Shown in pieces: positions 38,255-39,655 of a stretch of 64,000 nucleotides of DNA. The DNA is taken from IMG/VR virus record IMGVR_UViG_3300020048_000027, positions 32,001 to 96,000 of that record, one strand, 5' to 3'. The stretch is from a virus. The translations under genes were made by a program, and so were the position numbers. The notes beneath the pieces were generated by a model, which was not told the origin of the DNA, made no database searches, and worked only from the letters and a program-made list of their open reading frames with translations. Position 1 is the stretch's first letter. Each line of letters begins with the position of its first letter.

Positions 38255-38602
38255 AAAAAAAATATGTTGTCGAAAGTAGAAAGTATATAGACTATGTCAA
38301 ATATAAAATCAATGTCAAAAACCTTCCTCTACCTCAAAGGCAAAGTTAAAACCTAAGTCTCAGTTACAATAGCCAATTATCTGTCTAGTTTTAAAGATTT
38401 CTCTTTCTCTATGAGCTTTCAGTAACTTGTCTATTAGTTGAGTTCTATCTCAGTTTTAGTTTTTTTGTAGTGGAAGCGAAGTTTAAATAAGGCCCATGGC
38501 CGTTTAATTGCTTAGATTGATATCTGTCTCTTATGTAGTTTTAGAAATCCTTCCACTTTCGACACAAAACCAAAAGACATAGGCTTCTGCTTAGCCTTTT
38601 GG
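38255..38602 (-). ncRNA. Candidate structured non-coding RNA
   Basis: 15-bp closing stem 38549-38563/38269-38283 with G.U pairs on the minus strand, nested stem 38467-38476/38323-38332, 3' U-tract, no ORF. Confidence 0.65.
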
Positions 38603-38611
38603 TACCATATA

Positions 38612-39523
38612 TTATTTTAACTCTTTTAAAAACATGTCAATTGTTGATTGAAAAATTGGATCAACTTCTATCTTAAGGTTAGCTGCTGCTTGAATACTTA
38701 TCTGACGTGTTACTTCAAAGTCTTTTACTGCTTGCTTTTGATCATCCACCCACTTACTGTATGCATTCTTATACTCAACATTCTGTTTTAACATAATCTC
38801 ATTCACCTCAGATTGTATATCAGCTCTCTCTTTTGCAATACGAGCATTCTCTAAGGTAGTTAAGTTTTTTACCTTTGCTTTAGAGTAGTTTACCTTTTGT
38901 TCATAATCTCTATGAAGTCCTGCTAGTTGCTCATGTAAAGTCAATAGCTCAGCTGCAGTATGATGAACCTTGATTATCATCGGAGTCCTCTTCCCTGCTT
39001 CAATTTCTATAAACTCTAAGGTTTTAATAGTAGGAAGTTCAGATCTTAATCTATCTAGCTTACCGCCTTTATGTATAAATTGTCCAATATGTGAAGCATA
39101 TGACTCAGCTTCTAGGAATTCATTATACTCTTTTGTTGACAACTGTGCCCATCCCCAGTCCTCATTTACCGCCGATGGTAAATCCTTAACAACTGATCTA
39201 GGCATTTGAGGCATTTCTACAGCATACTCATAATTTTCCTGTTGAATATTTTTAATCAGCTGATCTTTTGCTTTAATATTTTCCATTAGGAATGCCTGGG
39301 TAGCATGTAGTCTTGCTTTTTCAGTTAACATCTCTACTACACCTTTAGGCATACGGTTTCCTTGTTGATCCATGTATGTTACGTTATCAATAACTACTGC
39401 TTTGCTAGCGTTATTAATATCCGTCAATGCTGCTGTAATATCTTTTGAACGCTGATTGCATAGGTTTGAAACTGACTGTGCTGTAGACATTGATAGTCCT
39501 TTTGATGCTAATGAATTTTTCAT
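38612..39523 (-). CDS. Long helical/coiled-coil protein
   Basis: 303 aa; GLSMSTAQSVSNL, IGQFIHKGG; own early-type promoter near 39550-39592. Confidence 0.8.
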   Translation of the reverse strand: MKNSLASKGLSMSTAQSVSNLCNQRSKDITAALTDINNASKAVVIDNVTYMDQQGNRMPKGVVEMLTEKARLHATQAFLMENIKAKDQLIKNIQQENYEYAVEMPQMPRSVVKDLPSAVNEDWGWAQLSTKEYNEFLEAESYASHIGQFIHKGGKLDRLRSELPTIKTLEFIEIEAGKRTPMIIKVHHTAAELLTLHEQLAGLHRDYEQKVNYSKAKVKNLTTLENARIAKERADIQSEVNEIMLKQNVEYKNAYSKWVDDQKQAVKDFEVTRQISIQAAANLKIEVDPIFQSTIDMFLKELK

Positions 39524-39655
39524 ATTTATATCTTTTATTTAATTTAGTATCTATATTTAAATATACGAATTATATTTGTATTATGCAACTTTTTACTAAG
39601 TTTTTTAAAGTATCTTATCTTCTCGGTACTACCTTAGTAATGTTGTTACTTACGT

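Follow-up and report, generated by a model that had tools for sequence, protein, structure and literature searches.

A phage protein gene and the structured RNA encoded directly behind it form a conserved pair that is probably an undescribed RNA-protein particle

The stretch of DNA analysed here (the window, 64 kb in length) comprises positions 32,001 to 96,000 of the 153.6-kb IMG/VR virus record IMGVR_UViG_3300020048_000027, a large phage that has not been cultured. On its minus strand it carries a gene for a protein of 303 amino acids (aa), followed directly by a non-coding RNA of 345 nt that is closed by long-range helices and exposes two unpaired tracts with U(U/A)G triplets at a spacing of six nucleotides. 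Gene and RNA travel together through a large number of viral loci, and the pair, which matches no described family, is probably an undescribed RNA-protein particle. At a probability of roughly 0.55, we favour the explanation that RNA and protein are co-transcribed and that copies of the protein bind the phased triplets.

Conservation of the gene-RNA pair and of the RNA structure

The pair was recovered from both of its ends. A protein-based scan of IMG/VR yielded 24 loci with homologs 41-71% identical to the 303-aa protein, and in all 24 the nucleotide sequence of the non-coding part behind the gene is conserved (68-83%), with obvious compensatory changes. A scan of IMG/VR with nothing but the invariant 16-mer of the RNA, ACTGAGATAGAACTCA, returned at least 119 stretches, and a full-length RNA, called with an nhmmer profile, is present in at least 121 loci, corresponding to 76 distinct sequences of 294-376 nt (median 319). 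Directly upstream and on the same strand, a homolog of the 303-aa protein is encoded in 119 of the 121 loci listed; the remaining two loci are cut off. As these loci were found via the RNA alone, the two-part module of protein and RNA is strongly supported. The linkage persists down to 41% protein identity (locus L024). In most loci 3-30 nt lie between gene and RNA, and where small open reading frames (ORFs) have been inserted the distance grows to as much as ~790 nt. When the neighbouring ORFs of 66 non-redundant loci were clustered, the 303-aa protein was present in 62 and the next commonest cluster in 15; judged from these loci, the conserved unit is the RNA-protein gene pair and not the neighbourhood. 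The 153.6-kb genome contains one copy of the RNA. An exhaustive profile search with the protein led to 817 representative clusters (50% identity) at E<=1e-3, and the best 150 of these 817 are mostly ~300 aa long, with some fragments; for the distant members of the family almost no viral loci were found. Neither blastn nor tblastn found a match in 50,697 phage records, and in the literature we found no published description of the RNA-protein pair.

Taken alone, the sequence from the window folds modestly better than its shuffled versions (z -1.95), and the case for a structured RNA therefore rests on comparison with relatives. An RNAalifold consensus and mutual information support an architecture made up of P0, H1, P1, P2, P3 and P4 (Table 1). 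The structure was scored on an nhmmer-profile alignment of 32 sequences with hand-set pairs: 87.5% of the cells are paired, as compared with 73.1% in shuffled alignments and 35-50% after sliding of the partner columns. Of the 53 pairs, 41 have changes on both sides, and none of 500 shuffles reaches any of the observed measures. As an alignment-independent control, the pairing energy of each sequence's own helix arms was set against that of foreign arms, resulting in -10.3 versus -4.2 kcal/mol for H1, -17.3 versus -6.4 kcal/mol for P1 and -12.0 versus -6.2 kcal/mol for P2. P1 exists in 50 distinct arm pairs among the relatives, and P4 has changes on both sides in six of eight pairs with 98% of its cells paired. 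Even the short P0 varies in a concerted manner, its middle pair being AU in 18 sequences, UA in 11, GC in two and GU in one, next to an invariant G-C pair. The fastest-evolving part of the RNA is the variable region between P1 and P2 (38479-38548). Family-wide, G.U/U.G pairs outnumber A.C/C.A pairs by 425 to 45, and this asymmetry identifies the functional molecule as an RNA read from the minus strand. Hairpin H1 belongs to this RNA and is more than a terminator, because its internal loop is conserved (internal loop and apex together read UAAGCAnAAGCyGAU, 38579-38593) and because inserted small ORFs displace it together with the rest of the RNA.

The layout of the locus is that of a single transcription unit. 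The early-type promoter motif GTTG-N20-TATATTT has 28 copies in the window, where 1.2 would be expected; one copy is situated just 5' of the 303-aa gene, none lies between gene and RNA, and the next one downstream is found at 35417. P0 starts 2-3 nt after the stop codon of the gene. With a single promoter, none in between and P0 immediately past the stop codon, the RNA has to arise as part of the 303-aa gene's mRNA. Signals for sigma-70 promoters or terminators did not rise above shuffled sequences. The RNA is followed by a U-tract, at a place where relatives have a hairpin terminator and a new promoter. In the window as a whole, copies of the motif are located at 25185-35417, 39559-39589, 40598-40628 and 49690-49720, nearly all on the minus strand and most of them within the early-gene array.

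The RNA is also represented in RNA libraries. Two near-identical contigs from two metatranscriptome runs of one 2024 study cover 38269-38593 (325 nt) and 38274-38596 (323 nt) at depths of 14 and 19, respectively, and one of them reads into the sequencing adapter at 38596. The coding sequence is represented by one 183-nt contig only (depth 3), and the two runs contain no contig downstream of 38269; a low or zero depth in the coding sequence and in the gene that follows the RNA is no proof of anything on its own. The same libraries contain, at 6-10 times higher depth (110-178, runs X6 and X7), a related variant that stems from another phage and matches 38280-38457 of the window, and a 688-nt contig of a related variant extends from the RNA back into the presumed partner gene.

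A first-pass annotation of the window, made from its letters without database searches, had anticipated much of this. The hairpin that follows the stop codon, the long-range stem of 15 bp with its two G.U pairs (38563-38549 with 38283-38269) and the nested stem (38476-38467 with 38332-38323) are all present, and both stems covary; the argument that G.U pairs on one strand and A.C mismatches on the other point to RNA and to its strand now holds for the whole family. The promoter of the gene and the final U-tract are real, and no ORF fills the gap, as the longest reading frame in the 371 nt after the gene does not exceed 37 codons from stop to stop. Where the annotation had suggested looking for covarying structure downstream of homologs and for a transcript over 38255-38600, conserved structure with compensatory changes and contigs over 38269-38596 were found. 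Its view that the RNA is not a named family is confirmed by Rfam 15, which gave no match at the gathering threshold for the whole window and only chance matches at E<=10 for the region. The latter, to snoRNA, SAM-II and tracrRNA families, were discarded. RNase P, tmRNA and SRP RNA were dropped as candidates after ARAGORN and Rfam had returned nothing for them; their topology, as we read it, presumably differs from that of the 345-nt RNA.

Table 1. Features of the gene-RNA pair, in window coordinates
Feature	Position	Strand	Remarks
Early-type promoter GTTG-N20-TATATTT	39559-39589	minus	sole such motif upstream of gene and RNA
Gene for the 303-aa partner protein (P0001)	38612-39523	minus	helical fold with two beta-hairpins, no known family
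Whole structured RNA, 345 nt	38264-38608	minus	from P0 5' strand to P0 3' strand; comparative folding
P0 5' strand, AUG	38606-38608	minus	pairs with CAU at 38264-38266; closes three-way junction
H1 hairpin	38569-38603	minus	covarying stem; 13 of 14 pairs changed on both sides
P1 5' strand	38549-38563	minus	long-range closing stem; 15 of 15 pairs changed on both sides
Variable region	38479-38548	minus	lineage-specific hairpins (here GGCC-AUG-GGCC); length and sequence not conserved
P2 5' strand, CGCUUCCACUAC	38467-38478	minus	nested stem
Invariant 16-mer, ACUGAGAUAGAACUCA	38439-38454	minus	same sequence in every aligned member; able to fold into the P3 hairpin
P4	38368-38435	minus	arms 38425-38435 and 38368-38377; variable hairpin insert with GAAA loop
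Tract A	38335-38358	minus	four hexamers with U(U/A)G at the end of each; apparently single-stranded
P2 3' strand, GUAGAGGAAG	38323-38332	minus	nested stem
Tract B	38285-38321	minus	five phased hexamers, then conserved CUAUAU; fixed length
P1 3' strand	38269-38283	minus	pairs with 38549-38563; RNA-library contigs end at 38269 and 38274
U-tract 3' of the RNA	38253-38260	minus	next gene starts at 38240

Phased tracts and the partner protein

Two U/G-rich tracts, A and B, flank the 3' strand of P2. A near-invariant G occupies positions 9, 15, 21 and 27 of tract A and positions 8, 14, 20 and 26 of tract B, in which position 32 is less strict, and each periodic G in both tracts is preceded by U(U/A) in the 53-59 relatives compared. 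The period-6 identity of the tracts in the window is reached by only two of 2000 shuffles, and the 6-nt steps that had been read in the 3' tracts by the first-pass annotation are thus genuine. The same annotation had noted repeated A-rich words on the 5' side; the words exist, but one of the two copies of AGACAGAUA (minus strand) lies in a region that is not conserved. Within the hexamer, positions 4 and 6 have almost no entropy, as opposed to 1-1.9 bits for positions 1-3. In 66 of 66 sequences, the opening GGU of tract B and the CUAUAU lie 33 nt apart, unlike other parts of the RNA, which vary in length by tens of nucleotides. Covariation was detected neither between the A-rich joint and tract A or B nor between the two tracts themselves. 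Being unpaired, phased and of fixed length, the tracts look single-stranded and constrained in register, and they have the look of a signature of repeated, putative binding sites. The spacers between the triplets form 44 distinct codes in 53 sequences. In 33 close pairs of relatives, the spacer dinucleotides differ at 0.048 per site; the corresponding values for the variable region and J2/3 are 0.135 and 0.118, respectively.

Among known RNA-binding systems, the triplet-plus-spacer pattern appears, by analogy, most like the binding site of TRAP. TRAP from Bacillus subtilis is a 75-aa beta-sandwich protein that acts as an 11-mer on mRNA leaders, where it binds (G/U)AG repeats. The likeness is one of pattern only, with triplets ending in AG or UG that are separated by short, unconserved spacers, such that every subunit of an oligomer could read one triplet. 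The RNA described here differs in that its spacers are exactly 3 nt long and its sites are embedded in a dedicated structured RNA. Homology of the 303-aa protein to MtrB/TRAP was not found, as the protein has no Pfam match of any kind.

The partner protein itself has no match in Pfam, PHROGs, NCBIfam, PADLOC or the sequences of PDB, and the same is true for the distant members of its family. AlphaFold2, run with a 32-sequence alignment, produced a model with a pLDDT (predicted local distance difference test score) of 86 and a pTM (predicted template modelling score) of 0.76, in which two helix/beta-hairpin/helix units are followed by long C-terminal helices. The predicted topology runs helix, hairpin, helix, helices, hairpin, long helices, and the beta-alpha-beta-beta-alpha-beta core is not seen in it. 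A Foldseek search of PDB with this model gave no meaningful match (best E 0.076), a fold search of BFVD led back to the protein's own family only, VIA-align against 48,161 chains reached a best Z of 7.4 with generic helical proteins, and a search of the ESM Atlas provided no lead. Helical toxins of the ClyA/Mak type recurred as weak matches with template modelling scores below 0.2 and were rejected, the beta-hairpins of the 303-aa protein being charged. A chain of Cas5, Cas6 or Cas7, as would be expected for a RAMP, turned up neither in Foldseek (PDB, BFVD) nor in VIA, although Vipr structures may be missing from the PDB set. Polar and basic segments are conserved in the family, namely SQAQSISNLCNQ, HIGQFIHKGG and YEQRVNYFKAKVKN, the last of which is a strongly conserved polar/basic helix.

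Neighbourhood of the pair

In relatives, the pair is frequently found close to tRNA genes. A tRNA on the same strand is located within 1 kb upstream of the protein start in 26 of the 49 loci that offer enough upstream sequence, and it is often the last one in an array of up to 23 tRNAs; a tRNA is present in 47 of 65 loci, and in several of them it begins 7-14 nt past the RNA. In the genome studied here, an array of 23 tRNA genes (G000:C1:118761-124653, minus strand, outside the window), one of which received an odd two-base anticodon call, is 47 kb away from the pair. A suppressor-type tRNA with the anticodon UUA, expected to decode UAA stops, is encoded 75-250 nt upstream of the protein gene in L100 (4571-4648) and L035 (1745-1822). 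L100 furthermore contains a group I intron (L100:6002-6189, RF00028, 61 bits) that starts 53 nt past the RNA and, in the same tRNA island 1.3 kb downstream, a GOLLD RNA (L100:7256-7670, RF02032, 306 bits).

Genes related to RNA repair are another recurrent feature. In L003 (4305-6701) and related loci (the L001-L014 group), the genes downstream encode a 216-aa calcineurin-like phosphoesterase and a 380-aa RNA ligase that has an OB domain, and an AAA_33 kinase-like protein (133 aa) follows the RNA in loci related to L003. As annotated, metallophosphoesterase, AAA_33 kinase and RNA ligase together are a putative set for the healing and sealing of RNA ends beside the tRNA array. In L016, a 526-aa TROVE/Ro60-like gene (L016:4333-5913, PF05731, E 2e-10) begins ~25 nt past the RNA, and Rfam detected no YrlA-type Y RNA in this locus. 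L020, L021 and L022 have a 526-aa ORF in the same position, the agreement being one of length only. The contigs of L016 and L021 measure at least 430 kb, those of L020 and L022 117 and 208 kb, respectively. The 153.6-kb genome has neither a TROVE gene nor an RNA ligase, and the pair is therefore independent of both. The surroundings in relatives suggest a role in tRNA or RNA maintenance, most likely in phage tRNA supply, RNA repair or RNA quality control.

In L018 (2188-4173), a neighbour gene of the pair encodes 661 aa with a C-terminal CHU_C domain for sorting by type IX secretion, pointing to Bacteroidota as hosts of this group of phages. The promoter motif of the window resembles the Bacteroidota promoter layout of a TTG box followed by a TAnnTTTG-like box, and both the motif and the CHU_C domain of L018 are in keeping with a phage of the Flavobacterium type.

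What the pair may be

We propose that the early promoter would drive the 303-aa gene and the 345-nt RNA on one transcript, from which the RNA would fold into its closed multi-helix scaffold (P0, H1, P1, P2, P3, P4) and accumulate as a stable species. This scaffold would present two single-stranded tracts of fixed length with U(U/A)G every 6 nt (4 + 5 units), and several copies or repeated surfaces of the 303-aa protein could bind the phased triplets, giving rise to a defined RNA-protein particle. It would resemble TRAP on (G/U)AG repeats or the filaments that Vipr and Cas7 form on periodic RNA, and VIPR offers a precedent for phage proteins that polymerise on periodic RNA (bioRxiv 10.64898/2026.04.26.720920, 10.64898/2026.04.26.720927). 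We prefer such a particle because the phased G, the fixed tract length and the missing pairing partner fit a protein-binding register, and the polar/basic helix YEQRVNYFKAKVKN has been counted in its favour. The covariation of the stems, the strict linkage of gene and RNA, their common promoter and the library contigs over the RNA likewise speak for it. Physical binding, its stoichiometry and the biological role are what we infer beyond the structure, linkage and periodicity observed.

Several points weigh against this proposal. With a median pI of 5.8 and a net charge of -7, the members of the protein family are mildly acidic, which speaks against a simple RNA-coating role; a recognisable RNA-binding fold did not emerge from the fold searches with the 303-aa model. 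Small ORFs separate gene and RNA in about a fifth of the loci, and strict adjacency could also arise from shared expression. GOLLD and ROOL work in tRNA islands without a protein partner. The RNA-library data consist of assembled contigs from one study that cannot prove transcription, ends or strand, and the oligomerisation of the protein on the periodic tracts is putative.

The example of GOLLD and ROOL makes it conceivable that the RNA is likewise an RNA-only machine, the gene supplying promoter and transcript or acting in the same pathway without touching the RNA. We regard this as unlikely without being far-fetched. GOLLD and ROOL are large phage RNAs near tRNA islands that form RNA-only cages and have no known protein partner (bioRxiv 10.1101/2024.12.08.627333); the RNA described here is similarly large and ornate and occurs in or beside the same type of island, in L100 even together with GOLLD, and both the acidity of the protein and the apparent excess of RNA over coding sequence in the RNA libraries would suit an RNA that acts alone. 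However, a link that survives in 119 of 121 listed loci at 41-71% protein identity, with all other neighbours turned over, exceeds what the supply of a promoter would need, and phased, unpaired triplets of fixed length resemble protein sites. Neither in sequence nor in structure does the RNA match GOLLD or ROOL, the GOLLD model (RF02032) detecting in L100 a separate RNA and not this one, and the family differs from them in being shorter, in having phased triplet tracts and in always being paired with one protein gene. Shared transcription would also be compatible with a cis-acting 3' untranslated region that stabilises the mRNA or feeds back on translation or decay of the 303-aa message and has no function of its own, an idea to which we give little credence. 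The RNA does begin 2-3 nt past the stop codon without a promoter of its own, and a terminating ribosome would unwind P0 and H1. Yet an RNA of 345 nt that has an invariant 16-mer, periodic tracts of fixed length and six helices that covary is far more elaborate than known 3' stabilisers, the RNA is intact where other ORFs sit between it and the gene, and library contigs span it without the coding sequence.

If the protein does contact the tracts, the question arises whether the spacers carry information, as they do in VIPR. Vipr is a RAMP, with an RRM core, a G-loop and a thumb, that polymerises on a vrRNA of ~100 nt with 9-16 YNNGG units (bioRxiv 10.64898/2026.04.26.720920, 10.64898/2026.04.26.720927, 10.64898/2026.10.15.759431); the hypervariable NN serve as a noncontiguous guide, a locus has several vrRNAs, and vap is an accessory gene (bioRxiv 10.64898/2026.04.26.720920, 10.64898/2026.04.26.720927). 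Both systems are minimal, phage-encoded modules of protein and RNA with short units in strict register in which fixed and variable bases alternate, and a programmable guide whose protomers lock U(U/A)G and expose the spacers as a noncontiguous target code would be in line with this precedent, with spacer entropies of 1-1.9 bits next to ~0 for U and G and with the many distinct spacer codes. We disfavour it as improbable, since the spacers differ less between close relatives (0.048 per site) than unconstrained regions do (0.135) and are thus not hypervariable. Moreover, there is one RNA per genome instead of an array, the period is 6 and not 5 with another fixed unit, the 4 + 5 units fall into two tracts of a 345-nt scaffold with a helix strand between them whereas vrRNA is short with a structured tail, a RAMP-like fold did not turn up in the PDB, BFVD and VIA searches, and a second conserved neighbour comparable to vap is lacking around the RNA. 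A pair resembling a toxin-antitoxin system, in which the RNA neutralises a harmful protein in a type III-like fashion, had been offered by the first-pass annotation as an alternative and seems highly improbable to us. The close pairing of a protein gene with an RNA, within a variable part of a mobile genome, would be in keeping with it, but type III (ToxIN-like) systems have tandem RNA repeats of ~36 nt upstream of an endoribonuclease toxin, and such repeats are absent here. The RNA lies downstream of the gene and not upstream behind a terminator, the protein has no match in PADLOC, Pfam or NCBIfam, and its model resembles no nuclease or pore-former at meaningful scores, with beta-hairpins that are charged and not hydrophobic; the idea is therefore unsupported. 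The TROVE gene of L016 and the ORFs of equal length in L020-L022 could be taken to mean that the RNA is a giant Y-RNA-like partner of a phage Ro60 (Rsr), which we find scarcely credible, as we do a DNA-level element such as an origin or a recombination site. Bacterial Y RNAs (YrlA) are 80-130 nt long, have a tRNA-like domain and, close to their 5' end, the conserved Ro-binding motif GNCGAAN0-1G, and are encoded within 4 kb of the Ro60 gene on the same strand (PMC4201824). Like them, the RNA of the window is non-coding, is closed by a long stem between its 5' and 3' parts and occurs beside tRNAs and genes for RNA repair or quality control, and GUCGAAAG in the P1 5' strand (38556-38563) fits the motif. 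This fit is a coincidence, not conserved in relatives as P1 covaries freely. The RNA is three times larger than a Y RNA and is without a tRNA-like domain and a conserved Ro motif, no YrlA match was obtained with Rfam in the RNA region of the window or in L016, and a Ro60/TROVE gene nearby was found in the L016 group only and not in this genome. A Y RNA follows Ro60; the 345-nt RNA follows the 303-aa gene with or without Ro60. The DNA-level element is excluded by the 425:45 asymmetry of G.U over A.C pairs.

Returning to the particle of RNA and 303-aa protein, a bolder version, which we consider rather improbable at present, is that a non-RAMP protein polymerises on the scaffolded U(U/A)G triplets and that the particle reads or captures other RNAs through the spacers, most plausibly tRNAs or their fragments. 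This would amount to an independent invention of periodic RNA display in the service of phage tRNA supply, repair or counter-defence. If true, such a capture particle would found a new class of RNA-protein machines in viruses, and the large RNAs of phage tRNA islands, so far unexplained, would have their first protein handle. GOLLD and ROOL have remained unexplained for 15 years, partly for want of a protein partner; a third, unrelated class of RNA with an obligate protein that matches no known fold would make pull-downs, reconstitution and cryo-electron microscopy straightforward. The triplet tracts would add a case to the few readers of RNA in fixed register, i.e. TRAP, Cas7 backbones and VIPR, which proved programmable. 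With 817 protein clusters and the RNA present in environmental metatranscriptomes, the pair is widespread and a common feature of freshwater phages with probable Bacteroidota hosts.

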